Positions 34,101 to 44,815 of a stretch of 64,000 bases of DNA are shown one piece after another. Position 1 is the stretch's first letter. Each line of letters starts with the position of its first letter. The stretch is from contig JBNAVT010000005.1 in NCBI GenBank assembly GCA_049700215.1, positions 26,542-90,541 of the forward strand. The letters are read 5' to 3'. The notes beneath the pieces are model-generated. The model made no database searches. It was not told the origin of the DNA and worked only from the letters and a program-made list of their open reading frames with translations. Source of the stretch: Thermoproteota archaeon. Its GTDB lineage: Archaea; Thermoproteota; EX4484-205; JAAOZP01. Made by a program: the position numbers and the translations under genes.

Positions 34101-34228
34101 GACAAAACTTCATAAATTACTTGACTAGCAGGCCCCGTCCTGAGGATGACTTTAATGTAGAACTGGGTTTTGGATATTTCGTCTATTTGGCATCTGATCA
34201 AAAGTTTGTGGAGGTTGAATGGAAATGA
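31184..34228 (+). CDS. large secreted gingipain-like (Peptidase_C25, clan CD) cysteine peptidase homolog with C-terminal Ig-like domains
   Basis: Signal/TM LLAALILLTLCFPAVSS. C25-type start YDYIIVTTNAIKTGSGELDNYVNYL. DYFYADLTGNWDTDGDGYYGE...PEVYVGRIPV. His-Gly VVFWFGHGG (His518, nt 32735-32737). Cys FTFQCSCNNG (Cys568, nt 32885-32887). Then GYALLKNGAIATVSSSRVS. Confidence 0.7.
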   Translation: MKKFYMRLPTIEEGRKLLNRYVRNKGLLAALILLTLCFPAVSSLRRMPTIMVSGAQYGEIELNIGCDSPSITYHQKYVEVKLDGFYTSGEPGNPELPCRFLDVLLPPDVNTSSIDIDVQLDESYEINVTAEVMPAPPLASDETVEWGAGKEIRGDKNHLVYGRGEYYPDKVVEIYRVSNRGIYVFARIRYNPIQYNPLKGVLKIHGNVVFKITYRLTGKRAAIVRNTMVEKIAENQFVNWNSAKEWYSPSFQASGSQYDYIIVTTNAIKTGSGELDNYVNYLQNTRGFRVKVVTEDDYGSAAGQQRAVNIRNWLRNNYLVMGVKYVLLIGNPDPDDPSNLSDYYGDVPMMMCWPRVQGYNDAPTDYFYADLTGNWDTDGDGYYGEYGQDTGVDFTPEVYVGRIPVYDNDYATLDRVLRKMMSYAFSGTGWRSRIMLPVAISNYANEDGNGWQRTDGLDLPKNIVENILPLGWSHYVLYERAGRDPVPETAPYYSAPLTRDNVFNEWRKSYGVVFWFGHGGNQGAYRKYWGFDDGDNVPESSEMSWASFFSSSDAPGLNDSTPSFTFQCSCNNGYPEDENNLGYALLKNGAIATVSSSRVSWYIIGYWRPRMLADNIEIGYRYVEKLLKSKLSAGVALYEAKGMLPHNDSVWWMNMFDFNLYGDPSISLFDSMSAIILDSEPQGSGLVRVDGQPVTTPTLFTWEVGSTHLLEAASTIDFGNGVRCAWYNWSDGGPQNRNYTVPGCNTTLKAFFKKQYNVTFNVTPLGSGTVTPSCSGWYDEGSTIQISATPGPDSVFRNWFSDTSKITIADPGSPDTTATINGPGTVTANFTVTVTSLTLRMINSTVQAGVVNLTVKIISPNNITGAEYAVDDTNSPTPIPSPVDGEWDSSIEFIKIGLNGSTYADGYHIIYIRANDGESTSDWFAIRFHVRSLVKRYNLIALLLTPPPDYSAKEVAEAIGLNTVLVSKWNAARQNFINYLTSRPRPEDDFNVELGFGYFVYLASDQKFVEVEWK

Positions 34229-36078
34229 AAAGGTTTTCTATTAAGCGTTTTACTTCGCTAGCCATCTTTCTAGTATTAATCGTCACAAGTGTAAATCTCT
34301 ATATTAGAGCTCAAGTTCCATTGGTCGTAGACGGGTACATTACCATGCCAGACGGGTCCCCGGCCGCAGGAGCCTCTGTAACCGTAATTGTTTCAGGCGG
34401 ACCTTCAGACTCCACCAGTTCTGGGGGTGATGGTTATTACCGGGTTGATCTTGTGGTTTCACCAGGAACCCACACCGTTACAGTTAGTGCATCAAAAGAC
34501 AGTTATTCTGGTTCAAATACAGGTTCTGGCGAGGCACATATTCAAGTGAACGTACGTCTTTCAGCAGCGCCCCCACCCCCACCTCCTCCACCTCCCCCAC
34601 CACCTTCGAGAAAGCAGGTCAGCATTCAGCTTACTGTTCCAAGCGAGGCTGCCGTTAACGCTAGTGTTAGGATGATTGGAAAAGTTAATCCGAGGGTTTC
34701 CTCGGTATACTTGAAGGTTAGGAATCCGAAAAATATTCTGGATGAATATCAGTTGCCGGTTGCCTCTAACGGAAGCTTTTCATTCGATTTGACGCCTACG
34801 CTTTTGGGCATTTACAAGGTTTCAGCGTATTTTCCTGGTGACTCGGAGTATGAGCCTGCTTCAACACCCGAGTACTCTCTCCGGGTGAAAGCAAGGTCGA
34901 TTCTTAATCTGACGATAAGCCCGACTGTGGTGGTTGCGGGAGCCGAGAACATCAGTATAAGTGGAGGCCTTTATCCTCCTAGTGCTCAAAACGTTTCACT
35001 ATACTATTCTTTAGACAACGCCTCCTGGATTCTTTTCGCCGAGCTGAATGCCACAACAGGGGTCTTCTCACTAGTTTGGGAGCCGAGGGTCTTCGGAGAT
35101 GTTTTCATAAAGGCGGAGTGGGCTGGCAATGAGACTTACACGGACTCCGTTGCATATGGAAGGTTTCAAACAGTGTTGCCAAGCGTATGCGCATTGCAAG
35201 CATGGGTTGAGAAGTCTCCGATTAAGATTGGAGAAGAAATACGTGTTAGCGGGGTTCTTATTGGTGCTACGGATCCTGAAACCGCTGTGTTGACGATGCT
35301 TGTCTACGAGAATGGGGAGGAGGTTGAAACCATTACTCTAAGGCCCTCGCAGGATGGGGGTTTCACCGCGTCCTTTAGGCCCGGGTCGCCGGGAGTGTAT
35401 GTGCTTCTTCTCGAAGCTAGCGGAGTAAAACTGTTGAAAGCCATCAACATTGTTACAGTGACAGTCCTAGGGGAGGTGGTGTTTAAAGCGGTTAATTCAA
35501 CGGGTGGCCTGCTGGATGAAGCAGTGGTAGAGTTGAAGCATAATGGTGAGGCAAGTTCAGAATCCGGAGAGTTGAGGGCCATCCTGAGTTTTGGAGAGTA
35601 CAGGGTCATAGTCAAGAAGCTTGGGGTTGAGGTGTTCAACGGTTCCCTAAGCCTGGCGAGTAACGGTGCTTTCCTGGGTTTCCAAGGCCAGAATGCAAGG
35701 TTTCCGCTCCCCCTATCTAGTGAGCCGTTAGTAATTGAATTAAAGACTAAAACCTATTCTCTAAGTGTTCATGTGGTTGATGAATTCGGCGATCCGATGG
35801 GAAACATCGAGGTCAAGATGGCTTCTCCGGTTTTTCAAGCCTCAGGGGTAACAGGTGCTGACGGCCGGGTTGTTTTCTCAAACATTCCCGCAGGAAACTA
35901 CACTGTCGACACTCGGTTTGAAAGCAGGAATTTGAACCTTATTAGAAACGAATCCATAACATTGAAAGGATCAGGGTTGAGCTTGAAGATCGTGCTCATT
36001 CTTCTTGCGGTTGCCCTACTAGTCTTAAGCTTGGCTGTTCTCCACTTTGCTGGAAAAAGGCTTTTTGCAAAGAAGTAG
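34219..36078 (+). CDS. cell-surface protein with CarboxypepD_reg-like/Ig-like beta-sandwich repeats, poly-Pro linker and C-terminal TM anchor
   Basis: N-terminal signal LAIFLVLIVTSVNLY. GYITMPDGSPAAGASVTVIV...GGDGYYRV. 12-residue PPPPPPPPPPPP run. C-terminus LKIVLILLAVALLVLSLAVLHFAGKRLFAKK (TM plus basic tail). The start overlaps the stop of the C25 gene. Confidence 0.65.
   Translation: MEMKRFSIKRFTSLAIFLVLIVTSVNLYIRAQVPLVVDGYITMPDGSPAAGASVTVIVSGGPSDSTSSGGDGYYRVDLVVSPGTHTVTVSASKDSYSGSNTGSGEAHIQVNVRLSAAPPPPPPPPPPPPSRKQVSIQLTVPSEAAVNASVRMIGKVNPRVSSVYLKVRNPKNILDEYQLPVASNGSFSFDLTPTLLGIYKVSAYFPGDSEYEPASTPEYSLRVKARSILNLTISPTVVVAGAENISISGGLYPPSAQNVSLYYSLDNASWILFAELNATTGVFSLVWEPRVFGDVFIKAEWAGNETYTDSVAYGRFQTVLPSVCALQAWVEKSPIKIGEEIRVSGVLIGATDPETAVLTMLVYENGEEVETITLRPSQDGGFTASFRPGSPGVYVLLLEASGVKLLKAINIVTVTVLGEVVFKAVNSTGGLLDEAVVELKHNGEASSESGELRAILSFGEYRVIVKKLGVEVFNGSLSLASNGAFLGFQGQNARFPLPLSSEPLVIELKTKTYSLSVHVVDEFGDPMGNIEVKMASPVFQASGVTGADGRVVFSNIPAGNYTVDTRFESRNLNLIRNESITLKGSGLSLKIVLILLAVALLVLSLAVLHFAGKRLFAKK
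34567..34608 (+). repeat. CCN codon tract encoding a poly-proline linker
   Basis: gcgcccccacccccacctcctccacctcccccaccaccttcg encodes APPPPPPPPPPPPS inside CDS 34219-36078. Confidence 0.9.
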
Positions 36079-36099
36079 GAAACAATTAAATCACAGCTG

Positions 36100-36486
36100 A
36101 TGCTGAATCTTTTAGTGGTGTGGATGAGGAGGGAAGGTAGCCTGTGGCTTGGCGCGTTCCTAGGGTTCATAATAAACTCTATCTTAGGCGCGTACTTTCC
36201 TGTTTTCGGCCCTTTTATCGGCGGCTTAATCGCCGGCTTAATAGCGGGGGGCGGGCCTGGTAGAGGTGCTCTCGCCGGGTTTCTAGCAGGAATATTCGGC
36301 GGAATAATCGCAACCATGCTTCTGATCATCGGTTTCGTCGGCGTCGGTGGGCTCCTCGCAGGGGCTCTCGGCGGATTGCTGGGTCTTATAGGAGGCCTGA
36401 TAGCTGGCGGTGCAATCATAGTTTCACTGGCATTCGGATCAATAATGTCGGTAATCGGGGGGGCTATTGGCGGGGTAGTAAGCTAG
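36100..36486 (+). CDS. small glycine-zipper-rich integral membrane protein
   Basis: 128 aa made almost entirely of GxxxG/GGxGG hydrophobic repeats (GGLIAGLIAGGGPGRGALAGFLAGIFGGIIATMLL...). About 4 TM segments. Only 22 nt downstream of the surface-protein gene. Confidence 0.5.
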   Translation: MLNLLVVWMRREGSLWLGAFLGFIINSILGAYFPVFGPFIGGLIAGLIAGGGPGRGALAGFLAGIFGGIIATMLLIIGFVGVGGLLAGALGGLLGLIGGLIAGGAIIVSLAFGSIMSVIGGAIGGVVS

Positions 36487-36530: not shown

Positions 36531-38078
36531 TCAGTGCTCGCTTTCACGCCTGCTCTGCGGGCTTATCTCAATGTTCATGTTTATTCTCTTCGCAAACCTG
36601 TTAAGCTTCTTATTATACTTCTTGACAAGTATGGGTACGTCCTCCTTGTTCGCATAGAGAATAAGCCTGTCTCCTTCAATCCTGATGTCGAAGTCTGAGA
36701 TCTGGTTGCGCACTATTGCCTGTACTTCCTCCTTAAGCTTCTCCTCGTACCCTGTCTTCTTCTTGCGAACCGGGACTATGAAGGTTTGCTCTCCGAAGAC
36801 GTAGAGCTCGTACTCCGCCTCCCCTGTAAGGAAGTTTTTCACGACTATCGTCGGCCTAGCTAGGTCAGCGTTCCTCATCCCCTTAGGTATTTTCACGACC
36901 GTTTCAAGCGTGTATATTTTCGAAACCTCTCCCTCCTTCATAAATATGACTGTGTCAATGATAGATGGTATGAGGCCAAGGTCAGTCCTGCCGGTGAAGC
37001 GTTGAATAGCATCCATAGGTGTCGTAGCATGTATGACGCCAACCATCCCTATGCCCGCGAGCCTAAGGTCTATGAAAATGTTGAAGTCGTTAGTGTCTCT
37101 AAGCTCATCGTATATCGTGTAGTCCGGCCTGCTCAACAGTAGAACATCATGAAGCTCACTAGGCTCAGCCGCGGTCTTAGAATACTGCGTGACGTCAGGC
37201 GGGAGCTGAAGGTCTCTCGGGCTCTCTATCGTCTTAACAACCTTATTCATCGACCTGTAGAACTCTGCTAGAGCCTGGGCGAAAGTGGATTTCCCCATTC
37301 CCGGGGCCCCGGCTATGAGTATTCCTTCAGCTTGGGTTCTAAGCCTCTCGACAAGCTTGTCAGCCAAATAATACTCCTCCAGGCTTCTCTTAATGAGCGG
37401 TTTAACAGCGGTGATTTCAAGCCCGTCGGAGAAGGGTGGTCTAGTTATGACTATCCTGAGGTCTTTAAGCTGTATTATTGTCGAGCCCGACTTATCTATC
37501 TCTACGAATCCCTGGTTTGTAAGCTGAACTCTCTCCATCACGTCAGCTATTATGGATTCGAGCTCAGGCTTGCTGATGGGTTTCTCGCCCACATCCCTGT
37601 AAACCCATTTGCCGGGAACACCCTCCTTAGCCTTCGGTATCACATTCTCCTTAAGGTGTATCGACATTATGCCTGGTTTAAAGAACTCTTCAAGCTTAGC
37701 TCTTCCAACTGGGCTGAGGTAGATTGCTTCAATCCCCATTGCTGTCGCCGTCTTAGTTAAAACCGGGTCGCATGAGACAAGAGTGCCGCCAGTGCTCATC
37801 GCCAGGTCCCTCAGAACCGTTGAAACCTCTTCCGGAGTGTTTGAAGAGCCTATGAACTCGACTTCAAGCCCCCTCGCCGATGCTGCATCCTTAAGCGATT
37901 TTAAGCCGTTTAACCCTGTTTCATCCCCAAATCTTGCTTTTCTCTCAAACTCCGACACAATTGCCTTATGCACTATTATTCTTCCCGAAACCTCTCCTTT
38001 TTCAACCGCCCTGGTAGCTACTCCGGTAAGTATTGAAGCGGGGTCTAGAACATAGACTTTAACTGCATTATTACTCAT
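36531..38078 (-). CDS. PIN-domain + PhoH-like P-loop ATPase + KH-domain protein (conserved archaeal COG1855-type)
   Basis: N-terminal PIN ([12 protein letters not shown]...). Walker [12 protein letters not shown]-terminal KH-like ...[23 protein letters not shown].... Confidence 0.8.
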
Positions 38079-38297
38079 AATTATCTCTTCTCGGCTCTCC
38101 GAGATTCTTTCTCAAACGCATTTATAAACTTTTCTAACGCTCTCCGACCTGGCCCCGCTCCTAGCCCTTACGAGCTCGTTCCGCAGGGTTCAAGGCTGCG
38201 TCAGGGAAGCCCCGCGAGCGCACGCTAACTCTCATCAGCGCGTGCTTAAGCAGATTTCAAGCCTTTAAAATATTCCTGTAAATCCTGCCCTGGATGC

Positions 38298-39083
38298 TCA
38301 GCCGCAGATTTCCCTGAGTTTCTGTATGCAGGATAATGCTGCCAGGTAGCTTGTCCTAGGATTATCAGGGTGAGGTGTATTCTCAACCTGTATCCTGAGG
38401 TTGGAAACCTTGGATTCAACATCTATCTCATGCATTATGTCTTTCCTAGTCGGGTCAGCTATTATTCTAACGAGGACGCCTGATTTAGAGTATAAGGCTA
38501 GTGCTGCTGCAACATTCACGCTTCTGGGGAAATGCATTAAAGCGTCTTCAACAGGCCCCTCGTAGACGAGCGTCGGCTCCCTGATTTTATCCAATTCAAT
38601 CCTCTTCTCCTTTAAATAGTCGGAGTAGGCTAATGCTTCAGGAGGCTTCCTCGTGGTTAAAACAACCCTGTCCACGCCCACTAGGCTTATGGCTTGAACA
38701 GCATCAAGTCCAGCGATTGCTCCTGCTGGAACATGTATTCTGCTCGCGTTTTCCTCATATATCTTCCTAGTCTCGGGGAAAAGGAGTCCTCCTATGCTCA
38801 TCACAAGCACCTCCTTTCCGGCTTCAATAATGGGTTTAAGATATTCTAGCACAGCCTCGTCGCTCGCAGCCTCGACAATGATACTAAGCCTCCTGTCTCT
38901 CAACATTTCCTCTATCCCCTCCAGAATCTTCGGCTTGCTCCTAAGCTTCTCAACCAGCTTCAAAGCAGCCTCCCTGCGTGAATCATAGACATAGACGAGT
39001 TTCGCGTTAATCTTGCCCTCGTCCACAGCCTCAGCTATGAGGGAGCCTATTGCACCACACCCTATCAAGCCGATCCTTTTCAT
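38298..39083 (-). CDS. nadX: L-aspartate dehydrogenase
   Basis: MKRIGLIGCGAIGSLIAEAV...AKLVYVYD..., ...SIGGLLF...VPAGAIAGLDAV.... Last gene of the nadA-nadC-nadX operon. The start overlaps the nadC stop. Confidence 0.8.
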   Translation of the reverse strand: MKRIGLIGCGAIGSLIAEAVDEGKINAKLVYVYDSRREAALKLVEKLRSKPKILEGIEEMLRDRRLSIIVEAASDEAVLEYLKPIIEAGKEVLVMSIGGLLFPETRKIYEENASRIHVPAGAIAGLDAVQAISLVGVDRVVLTTRKPPEALAYSDYLKEKRIELDKIREPTLVYEGPVEDALMHFPRSVNVAAALALYSKSGVLVRIIADPTRKDIMHEIDVESKVSNLRIQVENTPHPDNPRTSYLAALSCIQKLREICG

Positions 39084-39934
39084 TTTCCCACCCTCGTGAC
39101 TTCGAGCGATATGTCTATTGCTTTCGCTGAATGCGTCAGCTCCCCTGAGCTTATTATGTCAGGTTCAGCCTCCACGTACTCTTCAAGGTTTTCAAGCTTA
39201 ACTCCACCGGAAACCTCTACTAGAACCTTGCTCCTCAATCCCTTTTTCCTAAGCATTTCAATAGTCTTCCTCGCTCTTTCAGGTGTGCAATTGTCAAGCA
39301 TGATTATGTCCGCCCCTGCCTCAGCAGCCTCCACAGCATCCTCAGCCTCAGCTACCTCAACCTCTATCTTCTTGCTGAAGCTTGCTAGTTCCCTAGCCTT
39401 CTTAACAGCCTCACCAACCGAGTTGAAATACTTTAGATGATTCTCCTTGATAAGAATCATGTCTGACAGGTTTAGTCTGTGAGTGTCGCCGCCCGCGGCT
39501 GCAATAGCCTTCTTCTCGAAATACTGGAATCCAGGTTTAACCTTTCTAGTTGCAGCTATCTTCACGTTCGGGTTTATTCTCCGGGCTTTTTCAACGAAGG
39601 CCTTGGTTAATGTTGCCACTCCAAAGGTTTGCGAGAGAATGTTCAACAATAGTCTTTCAATCTCCATGAGTCTACGCATATTGCCTTTAATCCACATTAT
39701 TTTATCCCCTTTTCTGAATGCTTCACCACTCTTCTTCAAAACCCTGACCGTGAAACCCATTTTTTCAAGTATTGGGGCAACATCCTCGCAGCAGGCTGCA
39801 ACACCGTCCTCCTTAGCCATTACTACTGCCTCGCACGTAGCCTGTGGAGGTATGATCTCGGAGGTTAAGTCCCAGTAGGGTATGTCTTCAGAGAGCCACT
39901 CGAGGAATTTTCTATAAATCACTTCCTCGACCAT
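39080..39934 (-). CDS. nadC: nicotinate-nucleotide pyrophosphorylase (carboxylating), quinolinate phosphoribosyltransferase
   Basis: ...IPYWDLTSEIIP...ATRKVKPGFQYFEKKAIAAAGGDTHRLNLSDMILIKENHL... Canonical QPRTase motifs. Confidence 0.9.
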   Translation of the reverse strand: MVEEVIYRKFLEWLSEDIPYWDLTSEIIPPQATCEAVVMAKEDGVAACCEDVAPILEKMGFTVRVLKKSGEAFRKGDKIMWIKGNMRRLMEIERLLLNILSQTFGVATLTKAFVEKARRINPNVKIAATRKVKPGFQYFEKKAIAAAGGDTHRLNLSDMILIKENHLKYFNSVGEAVKKARELASFSKKIEVEVAEAEDAVEAAEAGADIIMLDNCTPERARKTIEMLRKKGLRSKVLVEVSGGVKLENLEEYVEAEPDIISSGELTHSAKAIDISLEVTRVGK

Positions 39935-40854
39935 GGTGTTTCAACCCCTAGGAGAGCAAAGCTTCTTTCAAGAACTTTCCTCGCCTTCTCAGCAAGCTTC
40001 TCATCGATTTTCACAACGGTCTCGCCGCTATCAAGGCTCCTGTACACTTTTTCAAGCGTGATCTTCTTCATGTTGGGGCATATCGTGTCTTTACTCACAG
40101 GATAAGCCTCCTTACCAGGGTAAAGCTTAGAGATTCTGTGAACTACCCCGTTCTCGGTGCCTATTATGAAACGCTTTGCATCAATCTCTCCAGCTGCCCT
40201 TATTATTTGGCTTGTGCTGCCCACGAAATCAGCCAGCCTCCTTGTTTCAGGCGGGCACTCGGGGTGTACAAGCACCTTCGCATCCGGCATCTTTTCCTTA
40301 ACGGATGTTATTCTACCTGCTGTGATCCCTATGTGAACCGGGCAGTAGCTGTTAAGGGGAACGGCAATAACCTCCTTCCCGGTTGTTTCAGCAACGTATG
40401 ACGCTAGGTTCCTATCCGGCCCGAAAAGGATTTTCTCCTCGTCAAGCTTAGAAACCAGCTTGGAAGCGCTGCTGCTGGTAACCACGTAGTCTGCCATAGA
40501 CTTGACTTCGACGAAGGAATTCACGTAAACCACTAGAGGCGCATCCGGGTGTTTTCTACGGTATTCGTCAACCACAGGAGGGTCGAGCTGCCACGCCATC
40601 GGGCAGATTGACCTCGGCTCAGGCGTTAGTATTGTCTTAGCGGGGTTCAGCACAGCCGCCTGCTCAACCATGAAGTCTACGCCTGCAAAAACTATCGTCT
40701 TAGCATCGGTCTCCATAGCCTTGATGGATAGTTCTAGGCTGTCGCCGACGAAATCAGCAACATCCTGCACCTCGGGCCTCTGGTAGTTGTGCGCTAGCAC
40801 TATGGCTCCCATGTCCCTCGCTTTCTCGCGTATTTTACGGCTAAGGTCTTCCAT
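39919..40854 (-). CDS. nadA: quinolinate synthase A
   Basis: ...AIVLAHNYQRPEVQDVADFVGDSLELS..., CPMA and the second/third repeat motifs. First gene of the operon. Confidence 0.9.
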   Translation of the reverse strand: MEDLSRKIREKARDMGAIVLAHNYQRPEVQDVADFVGDSLELSIKAMETDAKTIVFAGVDFMVEQAAVLNPAKTILTPEPRSICPMAWQLDPPVVDEYRRKHPDAPLVVYVNSFVEVKSMADYVVTSSSASKLVSKLDEEKILFGPDRNLASYVAETTGKEVIAVPLNSYCPVHIGITAGRITSVKEKMPDAKVLVHPECPPETRRLADFVGSTSQIIRAAGEIDAKRFIIGTENGVVHRISKLYPGKEAYPVSKDTICPNMKKITLEKVYRSLDSGETVVKIDEKLAEKARKVLERSFALLGVETPWSRK

Positions 40855-40867
40855 CAGCTTCTTTTGA

Positions 40868-40900
40868 AGGCTTAACCCCCATTATTTAAGGGGTTCTATT
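40868..40900 (-). promoter_or_regulatory. nadA promoter: TATA-like box (TTAAATAAT on the minus strand) flanked by inverted repeat AACCCC/GGGGTT
   Basis: Plus strand ttAACCCCcattatttaaGGGGTTc at 40871-40895. The AT-rich core is about 27 nt upstream of the nadA start codon (40852-40854), the leaderless-type spacing. Confidence 0.35.
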
Positions 40901-40950
40901 CAGGCAATAATTGCATAAATGCTTCGTTAAGAGGCAAAATAGAACTGCAA

Positions 40951-40982
40951 AGTTTTTAAACCGTTGAAAACAATAAATAGCC
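40951..40982 (+). promoter_or_regulatory. putative promoter of the NAD kinase gene (TATA-like AATAAATA / TTTTTAAA)
   Basis: AATAAATA at 40973-40980 lies 26-33 nt upstream of the TTG start at 41006. A second AT box is at 40951-40962. Confidence 0.3.
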
Positions 40983-41005
40983 CTCCAATCCACTACTGAA
41001 CCTAG

Positions 41006-42004
41006 TTGAACATAGTGCTAGCCCCAGCGAAGTCCGACCGTGGCCTGCTTAAGGAATGCTTGAGAACAGTCAGCCGCATCGGGGTGGAGGTTACACGCGT
41101 CAAGAGTCTTGAAGAGCTTGAGAAGATTAACGAGGGTCTTCTACTCGTGTTAGGCGAGGATAAGGATGTTTTGAAAGCCCTTCACTACGTGAAATCTAGG
41201 GATGTACTTATTCTGGGGGTTAGCAAGACAGAGAATAACAGTTTCCTCATGGAGACAACGCTTGAGAGGCTTGAAGACGCTTTAAGGGCTTTCCTGAGAA
41301 GAGAGTACAGCGTGGAGTATTCCTCGAGGCTTAAGGCTGTTGTAGACAATGCTGAAACACCGTGCGCGCTTAACGAGCTCGCAATATTCCCGAGGAAAAG
41401 CGCTACAGTGCTCGAGTATAGCCTTTATATCGACGGCGAATTCGTCTGGAGAGATATAGGTGATGGCTTGATAGTTTCCACACCAATAGGCTCAACAGCC
41501 TACGCTCTCTCAACAGGGGGGCCAATAATACATCCCCAAGCCAGGGTGGTGAGCATAGTCCCTGTTAACTCTTTAAACCTTACTAGAAGACCCTTGGTAA
41601 CCCCTCTTGAAAGCCTTATAGAAATCAGAGAAATAGTCAGTAACTCCGCATGTGAAGTCATCGTCGACGGTGGATATAGGATGAGGATAGCTGAGAAGGT
41701 TATTGTTAAAAGGGGTGAGGACGTTGGCTTCGTAAGGCTTAGCGAAGCGCTTCTGGCGAGAAGACTTGAGAAGAAGGCTAGAATGTCGCTTGACATAAGC
41801 AGTCTGCCTCCCAGCGCGAAACTGATTTTGAAGGTTCTTGAGTACGAGGGGGCTTTAACTCAGAGGGACATTGTTAAGAAGACGATGCTGCCAGCTAGGA
41901 CCGTGCGACACGCTCTCGCAATACTTGTCGGGAACAATTTCGTCAAGAAACGGCCTTTAATAAGGGATCCGAGGCAGGATCTCTACTATATTGAGTCCAA
42001 GTGA
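41006..42004 (+). CDS. nadK: NAD(+) kinase fused to a C-terminal winged-helix DNA-binding domain
   Basis: NAD-kinase core ...GDGLIVSTPIGSTAYALSTGGPIIHP...VVSIVPVNSLNLTRRPLV.... C-terminal approx. 70 aa ...AKLILKVLEYEGALTQRDIVKKTMLPARTVRHALAILVGNNFVKKRPLIRDPR... is a wHTH. TTG start. Confidence 0.8.
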   Translation: MNIVLAPAKSDRGLLKECLRTVSRIGVEVTRVKSLEELEKINEGLLLVLGEDKDVLKALHYVKSRDVLILGVSKTENNSFLMETTLERLEDALRAFLRREYSVEYSSRLKAVVDNAETPCALNELAIFPRKSATVLEYSLYIDGEFVWRDIGDGLIVSTPIGSTAYALSTGGPIIHPQARVVSIVPVNSLNLTRRPLVTPLESLIEIREIVSNSACEVIVDGGYRMRIAEKVIVKRGEDVGFVRLSEALLARRLEKKARMSLDISSLPPSAKLILKVLEYEGALTQRDIVKKTMLPARTVRHALAILVGNNFVKKRPLIRDPRQDLYYIESK

Positions 42005-42039
42005 TTAAGGGCTAAGTTTTTAAGAGTATTGTTTTAGGA

Positions 42040-43167
42040 GTGCCCATGGGAAGCGAGATAAGGGTTGCTGACTCGGCGAGGTCGCATAGAGTTGAGCTTC
42101 TTCTGGGTGAGCTGGGAGGGTCGCCGGTTAGCTGGCTCATCATTAACGATCTTGAAGTAAAGGTTGGGAAAGCATTCTTGAAAATGGGCGGGGTAGGCGG
42201 GGTTGGGACGCTCGAGGAGCACAGGATGAAGGGGTATTCGAGAAAGGTTATGGAGTTTTCAATCGAATACATGGTTAGGAACGGGTATGATGTTTCAATG
42301 CTTTTCGGCATACCTGATTACTATGTTAAATGGGGTTATGCTTCAACGCTTCCCAACTGCAAGATTACTATGCCTCTTAGGAATGCTGAGAGGGCTAGGC
42401 CTGGGCTTAAAGCTCGCCCAATGGTTAAGGAGGATGCTGGAGTTATCCTGGATATTTACGAGTTGGCTAATGAGCATAGGACAGGTCCCCTTAAGAGGCA
42501 TAGGGGTGAATGGTTCAGATTTAGAAAGGGAAGCTGGTGGGGGATACCTGCTGATGGGACAGTCTTTGAAGATGAGTCTGGAAGAATAGTTGCCTACTGC
42601 GCTTCTGACCGCTGGCCGAGGGTGATGAGGATAACTGAGGTGGGCGCTGTAGACGTTGCTCTCTATGAGCATGTGCTCCGCTATGCGTGCGACGTTGCTT
42701 TCCAGAAGAAGGCTACTGAACTTGAAATATATGTCCCGTTTGACCATCCATTCGCCGAGCTCTGTAAAAGCCTCGGCTGCACGGTTAGTATTGACTATCC
42801 GTATGCTTCCGACGGCATGGGGAGAATCGTCAATATCAAGTCAACCTTCGAGAAGCTTGTTCCAGTGTTTAAGGATCGTTTAGAAAAGGCCTGTGTGAAA
42901 GAGCTGCCTTCGCAAATATCTTTTAAAACTGACATAGGTCTTATTACGCTTGAAATCTCTGACTCTGGCGTGTCTATTTCAGAAGCTGTGTCGACGAACT
43001 GGATTGAGCTCCCACAATGGGTGTTAATGCAACTTATTCTTGGATATAGGGATCCGAAGAGCGTGGTGGTGGATCAGGCTGTGAAACATGAAGGGAGGGT
43101 TGAAAAAGCTTTAGAGACACTGTTTCCATCGGGGAATCCCCATATCTGGCATTCAGACTGGTTCTAG
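42040..43167 (+). CDS. GNAT family N-acetyltransferase, Eis-like (GNAT + SCP2-like C-terminal domain)
   Basis: GNAT motif A ...GGVGGVGTLEEHRMKGYSRKVM.... Eis-like C-terminus ...TNWIELPQWVLMQLILGYRDP.... GTG start. Confidence 0.6.
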   Translation: MPMGSEIRVADSARSHRVELLLGELGGSPVSWLIINDLEVKVGKAFLKMGGVGGVGTLEEHRMKGYSRKVMEFSIEYMVRNGYDVSMLFGIPDYYVKWGYASTLPNCKITMPLRNAERARPGLKARPMVKEDAGVILDIYELANEHRTGPLKRHRGEWFRFRKGSWWGIPADGTVFEDESGRIVAYCASDRWPRVMRITEVGAVDVALYEHVLRYACDVAFQKKATELEIYVPFDHPFAELCKSLGCTVSIDYPYASDGMGRIVNIKSTFEKLVPVFKDRLEKACVKELPSQISFKTDIGLITLEISDSGVSISEAVSTNWIELPQWVLMQLILGYRDPKSVVVDQAVKHEGRVEKALETLFPSGNPHIWHSDWF

Positions 43168-43195
43168 CACGCCAGTTTTAAACCGGCATTCCCTA

Positions 43196-43987
43196 CTACC
43201 CGTAGGCTCTTTTATAGAAATCGTCAAGTATCAATGGAACCTTCTCATCCTGTTTAATTCTTCTTATCGCGTCCGCTACGAAATCGACAATCCTCTCAAC
43301 CAGTATTTTACCCTTCTCCTTCGTCGCCAGCCTTGGGTCGCCGAGATAAAGCTGGACTGCGTAAGCCTGCCAGTCGACAGGCGTCTCTATTCCGGGGAGA
43401 TTCGTCCCCCCTGTCTTCGCCTCCTGCTTAACATTCTCCATCTTAATCAGGTTTTCAAACAAGTATAGCCCCATGCTGGTTTCACGCTCGCAAGCATGAC
43501 CTGTTACCCTGCTTTCACATATTTTCTCAGCAATCTCCTCTATCGAGGACCATGGCTCGATTAACGCGTAAATAACGTAATCCCTCTTCCTGTGCAAGCT
43601 TTCCCTTAGGAAAACCCTTAGAAGATTATTGTTTCCCCCGTGACCGTTGACAATGAGGATTTTTTTAAAACCGTTTCTCGCAACCTCTTCGCATATTTCC
43701 TCGAGAATATTAAGTATTGTTCTCGCGCTCAGCGATATGGTTCCCGGGAAATGCCGGTTCTCAGGCACATAAACATAGTAGAGTGTCGGCAGCACTACTG
43801 CAGGTTCTTTTTCAGCAGCCATCCTAGTTATTTCACGAATAGTTATGGAGTCTGTTCCAGTCGGCATATGAAGCCCATGTATTTCGATCGAGCCTACTGG
43901 TAGGACTGCAACAAGGTTTTTCTCAGCCGCCTCCTTTACATCAGGGCTTGTTAAACATTCCCAAAGCATTTCTAACCGTCTCCTCAC
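43196..43987 (-). CDS. creatininase family amidohydrolase (creatinine amidohydrolase/ArfB-like)
   Basis: ...VLPVGSIEIHGLHMPTGTDSI...ILIVNGHGGNNNLL... The metal-binding His/Asp/Glu pattern of PF02633. Confidence 0.8.
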   Translation of the reverse strand: MRRRLEMLWECLTSPDVKEAAEKNLVAVLPVGSIEIHGLHMPTGTDSITIREITRMAAEKEPAVVLPTLYYVYVPENRHFPGTISLSARTILNILEEICEEVARNGFKKILIVNGHGGNNNLLRVFLRESLHRKRDYVIYALIEPWSSIEEIAEKICESRVTGHACERETSMGLYLFENLIKMENVKQEAKTGGTNLPGIETPVDWQAYAVQLYLGDPRLATKEKGKILVERIVDFVADAIRRIKQDEKVPLILDDFYKRAYG

Positions 43988-44815
43988 ATTTTGTAAAGCT
44001 TATAACTTTTTCGCTGGAGTGTTAAATGTTTCCTGTTTCTCAGAAGGTTAAAATTAGTTGGGCGCGTTTCTAACAGGATTTTGAATGAGAATGATGCGGC
44101 TCTATTTGTTTAAATGAATCTTTAAGGATAAGTATCCGAATTATGTTTATGATGCAAGGAGTCCATGGGAGAAACCTCCAGGATTCTGGGAAAAGCGGTT
44201 GAACTCTAAAGGGTATTGCTGCCGGCTCCATCCGTACATACGGTATGTTAAAGAACATCTGGCTGAAATGATAGCTCGCAGGTTCTAAAAGGTTCCTACC
44301 TGTATTATGTTAAAAGTAGCCTAGAAAAAGCCCTACTATAAACGAGTGAAACATATGGGTAGCTGAAGTGATAAAGACCAAAAAGCAGCGACGAGAGGAC
44401 GATTGAAACCGTAACTCCATACATCTTGAAAAAGCCTCGCAACGTGCAGCCGCGGAAAACACCCTCCTCAGAGACACATTAGCAGATAGGCTAGAAAATA
44501 AACGGGCAAATGAATATAATAGGCGATATGAATCCGCGGAGCGTGCGCTCCCGACTTGTTTATAAGCATTTTCCCATGAGATGCATATTCATTCTTAACA
44601 ATAGCTGAGCACGCTGTTTTCCATCGAGAGAAAAACTCATTCTTTAGAAGTGGAATAAGCTATCAGTGGACGTCAATACGTTTCTTCCATAAAGCTCTGA
44701 ACCCTGTACAGTGTGTCCACGATCATGACGAGCCGAAATCCTGCTGGCTTTCGCCGTAGGAGTGTCAAGATTCTAGCTAAAAGTTTATCACTGGTGGATA
44801 AAATGTTTAAAGGGG

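Follow-up and report, generated by a model that had tools for sequence, protein, structure and literature searches.

What does an archaeal NAD kinase do with a DNA-binding domain at its C-terminus, next to the genes for the synthesis of its own substrate? This question is raised by a locus within a 64,000-nucleotide stretch of a Brockarchaeota genome (contig JBNAVT010000005.1; the whole stretch is called the window below). There, a gene on the plus strand (41006..42004) encodes a protein of 332 aa in which the fold of a kinase for nicotinamide adenine dinucleotide (NAD), NadK, is followed by a domain of the winged helix-turn-helix (wHTH) type. We hold with moderate confidence that this protein would be a NadK-fold "trigger enzyme", the C-terminal MarR-like wHTH of which acts as the transcription factor of a NAD regulon. 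Two observations carry this reading: the fusion gene lies beside the NAD operon, and a palindrome of the type GGCAA-N3-TTGCC recurs at such promoters in distant archaea, which suggests that the enzyme is probably also a regulator of NAD synthesis. An earlier note on this DNA had proposed a NAD-homeostasis circuit in which the kinase-fused wHTH acts at an inverted repeat in the nadA promoter. The circuit gained comparative support from the MarR-like fold, from nad and NiaP-like neighbour genes and from the palindrome, whereas the repeat mechanism did not.

The fusion gene begins with a TTG codon, which is unchanged in 8 orthologous Brockarchaeota loci, and is probably leaderless. Its open reading frame (ORF) includes the peptide LTQRDIVKKTMLPARTVRHALAILVGNNFVKKRPL pointed out previously, and the translation bears out that a NAD kinase and a C-terminal winged helix are joined in one ORF (Pfam NAD_kinase_C and an HTH_9/MarR_2 match). 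Head-to-head with it, on the minus strand, lie nadA (quinolinate synthase, 39919..40854; Pfam NadA, E=2.9e-106), which is the first gene of the presumed target operon, nadC (quinolinate phosphoribosyltransferase, 39080..39934; Pfam QRPTase_N and QRPTase_C) and the L-aspartate dehydrogenase gene nadX (38298..39083; Pfam Asp_DH_C and NAD_binding_3). This divergent arrangement was found as originally described, with a shared intergenic region of 151 bp. The TATA-like element ATTATTTAA at 40881-40889, which had been placed about 27 nt from the nadA ATG, was equally present; the nadA TATA box TTAAATAA within it (40882..40889, minus strand) is invariant in the 8 orthologous loci. The probable TATA box of the fusion gene, AATAAATA (40972..40979, plus strand), lies 26 nt 5' of the TTG start within an A/T-rich block that is partly conserved among the aligned Brockarchaeota loci (the clade of the window has AAATAGCCC and L006-L008 have ATATAACCC, L numbers denoting the loci compared). 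Rfam gave no relevant match over 38000-44000, and the intergenic region contained neither a terminator nor a sigma-70-type promoter. In the best genomic match among those listed, the kinase protein shares 97% identity with that of the window, and the neighbours, in unchanged order, share 88-98%.

Is the C-terminal domain of a kind that binds DNA? Secondary structure from AlphaFold2 modelling, Foldseek and a profile search against the PDB agree that residues 266-332 (41801..42001, plus strand) form a MarR-like wHTH; the Pfam HTH_9/MarR_2-type match covers residues 267-323. Modelled in isolation, the domain has the topology H-H-H-E-E with a predicted local distance difference test score (pLDDT) of 89.6. 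Nearly all of the top 50 Foldseek matches listed (E from 1e-4 to about 1e-3) were MarR-family regulators, several of them DNA-bound, and the domain profile retrieved MarR and Lrp-type HTH proteins, the match to the MarR protein 3g3z aligning the D-x-R of the wing. The recognition helix (297-309) carries R298 and T299, both invariant, and the nearly invariant R301, while the wing bears R320-D321-x-R323. No other part of the protein is as well conserved as the wHTH: throughout 86 family sequences PPSAK, L295, R298-T299, L307 and R320-D321-x-R323 are invariant or nearly so. The domain is MarR-like but does not make the fusion a MarR-family protein, since the Pfam family scores stay below threshold (MarR_2, 18.6 bits against a cut-off of 27; MarR, 16.6 bits against 24.6) and the C-terminal MarR dimerisation helices are absent, the protein ending 9 residues past the wing. 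What it shares with the MarR family, the dimers of which bind short palindromes, is the wHTH fold and the Arg/Asp pattern of recognition helix and wing. MarR proteins dimerise through flanking N- and C-terminal helices, which the fusion lacks, so that its NadK body would need to provide for dimerisation.

The signature of this domain, PPSAK..L.YEG.LTQ..L...T.LP.RTVRYAL..L......R....DARQ..Y, also defines many stand-alone proteins of about 90 aa, apparently haloarchaeal or euryarchaeal (P0156, P0164, P0172, P0173, P0185, P0186 and P0190). It was further seen in a viral GP88-domain fusion, a 684-aa protein and a tandem arrangement (P0149, P0169, P0253). Beyond weak MarR_2/HTH_24 matches no curated family was found for it.

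The fusion is widely distributed. A protein search returned at least 120 relatives of about 330 aa, almost all within 320-370 aa and most with precomputed MarR-type domain matches. In a GTDB scan with one genome per species at least 574 matches were confirmed, and the best 80 of these all align through the wHTH, so that the check suggested earlier, whether NadK proteins of related archaea carry this domain, had a positive outcome. Carriers include Brockarchaeota (the lineage of the window), Thermofilaceae, Caldarchaeales (Terraquivivens, Calditenuaceae), Geoarchaeota, Korarchaeota and Methanodesulfokora, as well as Nitrososphaerales (Nitrososphaera), Nitrosocaldus, Nitrosopumilales, Metallosphaera javensis, Thorarchaeota and Njordarchaeia; the fusion was also found in some metagenome-assembled genomes (MAGs) labelled Thermoplasmata. 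Set against bacterial, euryarchaeal and structurally solved NadK proteins, the extension is unusual, as had been thought; within the TACK and Asgard archaea, which commonly carry the fusion, it is not. The earlier note had also considered a C-terminal domain that is common among archaeal NadK proteins and does not bind DNA; commonness holds for the TACK and Asgard groups, and nothing points to a lack of binding.

Genes for NAD synthesis adjoin the fusion gene in L001-L004, L006-L008, L019, L021, L031, L047, L072 and L074, and further in L081, L162, L163, L166, L167 and L169. At 11 further loci the neighbour is a major facilitator superfamily gene of the aromatic-acid/H+ symporter (AAHS) type with secondary similarity to SV2/organic-cation transporters. 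We take this profile to fit NiaP niacin transporters; nicotinate is an aromatic acid. In Nitrososphaerales and Nitrosopumilales (a subset of L040-L080, e.g. L060:6922-7836, and L083-L096) a PfkB-family kinase gene lies directly 5' of the fusion gene on the same strand, and the two probably form an operon. In the cultured Sulfolobales species Metallosphaera javensis (GCA_022064045.1, L168:5001-6002) the fusion gene is divergent from an amino-acid-permease-family gene. Public annotations do not agree on a name for family members, which appear as "N-acetylmuramoyl-L-alanine amidase", "sugar kinase", "MarR family transcriptional regulator" or "NAD(+)/NADH kinase" (P0388 and P0389, which are Thermoprotei MAG proteins, P0016 and P0416).

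Where would such a protein bind? The candidate operator is a 13-bp palindrome with the consensus GGCAA-N3-TTGCC. In the window, site 1 (GGCAATAATTGCA, 40903..40915) matches this consensus with one mismatch and, read on the nadA strand, its TTGCC-type end lies 13 nt 5' of the nadA TATA box. Site 2 (GGCAAAATAGAAC, 40933..40945) is a half-site at a distance of 30 bp from site 1, start to start; an AGGCAA direct repeat with a spacing of 30 links the two. In the direction of nadA the promoter thus reads TGCAATTATTGCC, 13 nt, TTAAATAA, with a half-site in the distal position. Site 1 is nearly invariant in the 8 Brockarchaeota loci, with one varying position in each of L006-L008. A block within it, GGCAATAATTG (40903-40913), which is part of the palindrome GCAAT-A-ATTGC, is unchanged but for one position in L007, and GGCAAAA of site 2 (40933-40939) is invariant in this group.

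The same element was found between fusion and nad genes in distant lineages: as GGCAACATTTGCC and GGCAAACATTGTC in the thorarchaeote L074, as GGTAACAATTGCC and GGCAAACGTTGAC in L047, as AGCAATTGTTGCC in L019 and as AGTAATTATTGCC in the Methylarchaceae locus L021. It also precedes NiaP-like transporter genes (GGCAATAATTGCC in L017, GGCAAGAATTGCC in L032, GGCACATATTGCC in L038) and occurs in Caldarchaeales-like, Thermoprotei and "Thermoplasmata" MAG loci. L019 and L031 have separate copies before nadA, before the first gene of the cluster, before the transporter gene and before the fusion gene. Read in the direction of the target gene, 17 promoters follow one plan: a distal site, 16-18 nt, a proximal site ending in TTGCC, 12-13 nt and the TATA box. 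The nadA promoter of the window fits it. The spacing within site pairs peaks across lineages at 29-31 bp start to start, i.e. three helical turns, the second site being full or half. Two loci of the Thermofilum type that were obtained later and independently (L081, L162) likewise fit this plan. In the set found through NadA, the paired architecture is complete in L166, and a perfect GGCAATTATTGCC stands 13 nt from the TATA box of L167. Finally, the palindrome overlaps the start of the fusion gene itself in L019, L031, L015/16/20, L017 and L168; in the last of these, from Metallosphaera, GGCAAAAAATGCC overlaps the probable true start codon.

The enrichment was assessed at several thresholds. 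With at most one mismatch, the upstream windows (29.8 kb in total) gave 13 matches, compared to 48 from 941 kb of other sequence. Among intergenic matches with a position weight matrix (PWM) score of at least 14 in about 1 Mb, 17 of 20 flank a fusion gene. As a negative set we used 61 unfused, mostly bacterial NadK loci, 59 of which had scorable upstream regions. A PWM score of at least 11 was reached by 6 of 12 held-out loci with NAD-gene neighbours compared to 6 of the 59 controls (p=0.004), and a score of at least 8.5 by 10 of 12 compared to 10 of 59 (p=2e-5). In the Nitrososphaera loci, which were held out from the matrix, the site stands at a fixed position 5' of the pfkB-nadK operon within an otherwise diverging spacer. 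The nad operons of the Desulfurococcales Pyrodictium, Stetteria and Ignisphaera, which have no adjacent fusion gene as judged at the locus only, have no site, which fits a co-occurrence of site and fusion. In two of these a small gene precedes nadA: a 135-aa HTH protein gene in Stetteria (L164:3448-3855) and a gene for an acidic protein of 123 aa with no family match in Pyrodictium (L161:4532-4903). These may be alternative regulators.

The Nitrososphaera spacer holds a further conserved feature, e.g. at L060:6790-6900. Between the conserved site, which has TTATAGCT 7 nt after it, and the pfkB promoter lies a hairpin of about 55 nt. In the alignment of these loci (A5: L041, L049, L052, L055, L060, L043, L056, L061, L053, L054) one clade has the stem GCGCTGCCC/GGGCGCGC and the other GCGCTAGYCC/GGGCTGCGC; two of the pairs are compensatory, and the loop contains an invariant CCGCCATCCCA. 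No Rfam match for the hairpin and no conserved small ORF was found in the stretch between site and pfkB. The hairpin may belong to a small RNA or to a leader that is controlled in the same way.

How does this element relate to the repeat of the earlier note? There, the wHTH was proposed to act at AACCCC...GGGGTT, which brackets the TATA element; in such a model it would bind this repeat and repress nadA by occluding the TATA-binding protein (TBP) and transcription factor B (TFB). The repeat does exist, is perfectly complementary and straddles the TATA box. Its right arm lies at 40890-40895 as given; its left arm, between TATA box and nadA start, is at 40874..40879, one base off the original coordinate. 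TATA box and right arm are invariant in the 8 Brockarchaeota promoters, and Thermofilaceae have a comparable C-run ahead of the TATA box. The left arm, however, decays even among close relatives. It reads AGCCCC in L002 and AACCCT in L003/L004, agreeing in 5 of 6 bases where the protein is 92-93% identical, and ACGAGC, GCAAGC and ACAAGC in L006-L008, agreeing in 2-3 of 6. Moreover, AACCCC/GGGGTT is one of six 6-nt inverted-repeat pairs in the 151 bp, and the nad promoters of other lineages hold no equivalent but share GGCAA-N3-TTGCC 5' of the TATA box. Because the left arm decays, an outcome that the earlier note had itself named as refuting, and such repeats are common in the region, we rejected this pair as the operator, and repression by wHTH binding across the TATA box appears highly improbable. 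The conserved site is located upstream of the TFB recognition element (BRE) and TATA box rather than across them. Such a geometry, which is met more typically with archaeal activators, speaks against simple occlusion of TBP/TFB.

The right arm forms part of a C-rich element, AGAACCCC (40890..40897, minus strand), which occupies the BRE position of the nadA promoter and is invariant in Brockarchaeota. Similar C-runs precede the TATA box in the Thermofilaceae/Thermofilum nadA promoters L072, L081 and L162. As CCCTTWAAWA occurs only once in the window, the C-run is not a general promoter feature of this genome. An 8-nt inverted repeat that flanks both sites, GTTCTATT/AATAGAAC (40893-40900 / 40938-40945), was discarded since its right arm is not conserved in Brockarchaeota.

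Several observations weigh against a role of the fusion protein as regulator at the palindrome. In the window alone the palindrome is not significant, with 1 match at up to one mismatch in 64 kb compared to 2.3 expected. The PWM is weak by itself: about 10% of control upstream regions score at least 11, and composites with 2-3 mismatches also arise at random, so a single-site PWM was dropped as a specific detector. The matches at 58529 of the window and at 15656 of L074 fall within coding sequence. Many of the loci are related, such that counts overstate their independence; L169 has a half-site only and L163 a weak site only. Directly 5' of the fusion gene no strong site was seen in Terraquivivens-type loci, nor in 15 loci from metagenomes, the majority of ammonia-oxidiser types. 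Since most loci without NAD-gene neighbours likewise have no site directly 5' of the fusion gene, we abandoned autoregulation as a universal feature. Furthermore, the wHTH signature is common in stand-alone proteins of about 90 aa, so that its conservation alone implies no single shared operator. The adjacency of nadK and nad genes could reflect shared metabolism alone, and the palindrome could have another binding factor.

Taken together, these last points would describe an ordinary NAD kinase whose wHTH serves oligomer assembly, non-specific nucleic-acid binding or docking, with the palindrome bound by a different regulator and adjacency resulting from pathway clustering. Such an arrangement would explain why the sites track nad and transporter promoters rather than the fusion gene as such, and why they are absent 5' of fusion genes without an adjacent NAD gene. 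NadK is functionally tied to NAD synthesis anyway, and this type of wHTH is common to many unrelated small proteins. Conversely, the wHTH retains the DNA-contact hallmarks of MarR proteins, the R-T-x-R helix and the R-D-x-R wing, which are invariant or nearly so in the 86 sequences. In several lineages palindromes lie over the start of the fusion gene, as is typical of autoregulation; the site is absent from the three nad operons that no fusion gene adjoins; and no other conserved regulator gene was seen in the fusion loci. We therefore consider an ordinary kinase with a non-regulatory wHTH unlikely.

A regulator that senses NAD could do so with or without kinase activity. Is the kinase domain still an enzyme? 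A NAD-kinase fold spans residues 1-248 (41006..41749, plus strand) according to Foldseek against the PDB and the invariant columns of 86 members. The Pfam NAD_kinase_C model (PF20143) matches residues 122-234 (E=3.7e-27; 95 bits, the cut-off being 23.7). Motifs for NAD binding and catalysis are kept, namely the NE motif (N123) and DG..TP.GSTAY..S.GGP (153-173), with N123, D153-G154, T159, G162-S163, Y166, S169 and G171-G172 invariant in the 86 sequences. All of the top 50 Foldseek matches in the PDB were NAD(H) kinase entries, one being labelled only "putative kinase", with a template modelling (TM) score of about 0.8 on target. Solved NadK structures align to about residue 260 only, and the C-terminal extension is absent from all of them. 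Accordingly, the AlphaFold2 model (86 homologues; pLDDT 88) shows the NadK fold up to residue 244, a linker helix at 249-265 and the wHTH at 266-332.

The GGDG motif is, however, non-canonical. In the window protein it reads G50-E51-D52-K53-D54 (41153..41167, plus strand), following a family pattern G-x-D-[R/K]-x in which G and D occur in 86/86 sequences each and the fourth position is R or K in 71/86 and G in just 7/86. This systematic alteration also counts against a protein that is enzyme and regulator at once. It is what one would expect if the NadK-like domain were a catalytically dead sensor, like the Nudix domain of the bacterial regulator NrtR, while a separate canonical NadK makes NADP. 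Family scores point in the same direction: the N-terminal NadK domain (PF01513) went undetected by Pfam in the window protein, although Foldseek finds the fold, and NCBIfam NAD kinase models match residues 19-264 with at most 137 bits, far below equivalog cut-offs of at least 211 bits. In addition, Metallosphaera carries a fused copy, while the Sulfolobales NadK proteins known to us are of about 249 aa and unfused. Altered loop and sub-threshold scores thus leave room for what may be a sensor-only paralogue. On the other side, neither the catalytic Asp nor any NAD-site motif varies among 86 sequences from different phyla, which is why the kinase domain is probably catalytic. The fold superposes on active NadK proteins, and the window contains no second NadK. 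The final homologue search returned fused relatives and bacterial NadK proteins only, with no unfused archaeal NadK among the matches listed. A survey of 23 archaeal species counted one nadK per species (PMC6675116); haloarchaea are reported to have two. In the analogous case of the riboflavin kinase/regulator RbkR the fused protein is active and the sole kinase in most genomes (PMC5397151). A dead sensor accompanied by a second, canonical NadK is thus rather doubtful.

If the fusion protein does regulate NAD synthesis, how might it act? Sequence comparison suggests that it would bind the GGCAA-N3-TTGCC element. NAD kinases form dimers or tetramers and would thus offer two wHTH pairs for two sites; a dimer of dimers could occupy both, three helical turns apart. 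Bound just 5' of BRE and TATA box, the protein would help to recruit TFB and TBP and thereby activate nadA-nadC-aspDH. Activation is slightly favoured over repression by crowding of the BRE, to which we give nearly as much weight, because a fixed site just upstream of BRE/TATA usually goes with activation in archaea; that this choice is based on geometry alone counts against it. In parallel with the action of flavin mononucleotide (FMN) on RbkR, a nicotinamide dinucleotide (NAD(H) or NADP(H)) in the kinase site might weaken DNA binding, so that a full pool would lower synthesis and uptake. Autorepression would be likely wherever the full palindrome extends over the start of the fusion gene (the lineages of L019, L031, L015/16/20, L017 and L168). 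The most far-reaching version, in which NAD(P) homeostasis throughout the TACK and Asgard archaea would be under one master regulator, would combine an active kinase that senses NAD(P)(H) in its active site, binding as a dimer of dimers, activation of nadA-nadC-aspDH and niacin uptake, and self-repression at its own start. We put this forward only tentatively.

Among known systems the archaeal riboflavin kinase/regulator RbkR (Rodionova et al. 2017) comes closest. It is released from DNA by FMN, while cytidine triphosphate (CTP) promotes binding; its sites lie 1-12 nt upstream of promoter elements, from which its authors infer a likely activator; and it is spread over Crenarchaeota, Thaumarchaeota and other phyla and was validated by electrophoretic mobility shift assay, kinetics and a DNA co-crystal (PMC5397151). 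Both proteins combine an archaeal cofactor-pathway kinase with a MarR-type wHTH in one polypeptide. For both, comparative genomics predicts control of the biosynthesis and uptake genes of their own cofactor, with palindromes a few nt 5' of BRE/TATA. They differ in that the CTP-dependent RibK fold is unrelated to NadK and in that the wHTH is N-terminal in RbkR and C-terminal in the NadK fusion. Operator and regulon differ as well. The RbkR study used the upstream region of an archaeal niacin transporter solely as negative control (PMC5397151).

Bacterial NAD regulators offer looser parallels. NrtR and NiaR are NAD regulon repressors that control de novo synthesis and the NiaP transporter (PMC2330246, PMC2330245). 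Like the fusion protein, NrtR joins an enzyme-like (Nudix) sensor to a C-terminal wHTH, and it was found, as was NiaR, by genome-context and motif analysis. The sensors (Nudix; 3H domain), effectors (ADP-ribose; niacin) and operators of NrtR and NiaR differ from those of the NadK fusion, and the Nudix domain of NrtR is usually inactive, whereas the fusion keeps its active-site residues. Enterobacterial NadR consists of an HTH, a nicotinamide mononucleotide (NMN) adenylyltransferase and a ribosylnicotinamide kinase, and controls nadA/nadB and salvage/transport in response to the NAD pool. It resembles the fusion as a NAD-pathway enzyme joined to a DNA-binding domain that regulates NAD genes; it differs in being bacterial, in its N-terminal Xre-type HTH and other enzyme domains and as a repressor with NAD as corepressor. 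The fusion protein had no Pfam or NCBIfam match to the NadR, NiaR or NrtR families; its relation to them is one of functional analogy only. The canonical NAD kinases of A. fulgidus (1SUW), M. tuberculosis (1U0T) and P. aeruginosa (7QVS) share its two-domain fold, NE and GSTAY/GGP motifs and catalytic Asp but have no DNA-binding extension and a GGDG(T) loop in place of G-x-D-[R/K]-x. Further enzyme-regulator fusions are BirA and ThiR, the latter an archaeal cofactor regulator of enzyme-like and DNA-binding domain.

To our knowledge, the control of NAD synthesis in archaea is essentially uncharacterised: NadR, NiaR and NrtR are bacterial, and archaea are without corresponding riboswitches. The earlier note was aware of no archaeal NAD regulator of this type, and in the open full-text literature we found neither an account of a NadK-wHTH regulator nor one of any archaeal NAD-regulon factor. 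If the fusion protein is indeed such a regulator, it would tie the NAD/NADP branch point directly to the expression of de novo synthesis and niacin uptake genes, and would join RbkR and ThiR as an archaeal cofactor regulator composed of an enzyme-like plus a DNA-binding domain. Corrected annotations would follow for hundreds of genes that at present are called "NAD kinase", "sugar kinase", "MarR family regulator" or "N-acetylmuramoyl-L-alanine amidase". The prediction is directly testable, as the candidate operator is defined to the base. Apparent tractable or cultured carriers are Metallosphaera javensis, which may be a good experimental entry point, and, from MAG/metagenome records, Thermofilum and Nitrososphaera.

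Some features of the surrounding DNA remain to be described. A gene for a 375-aa GNAT protein (Acetyltransf_9; 42040-43167, plus strand) begins 35 nt past the stop codon of the fusion gene. Its position is kept in every Brockarchaeota locus that reaches that far, such that the two genes are maybe co-transcribed. Beyond the nad operon, 34219-36486 (plus strand) encodes a predicted secreted or surface protein of 619 aa with a run of 13 prolines, and downstream of it lies the gene for a membrane protein of 128 aa that is extremely rich in glycine.

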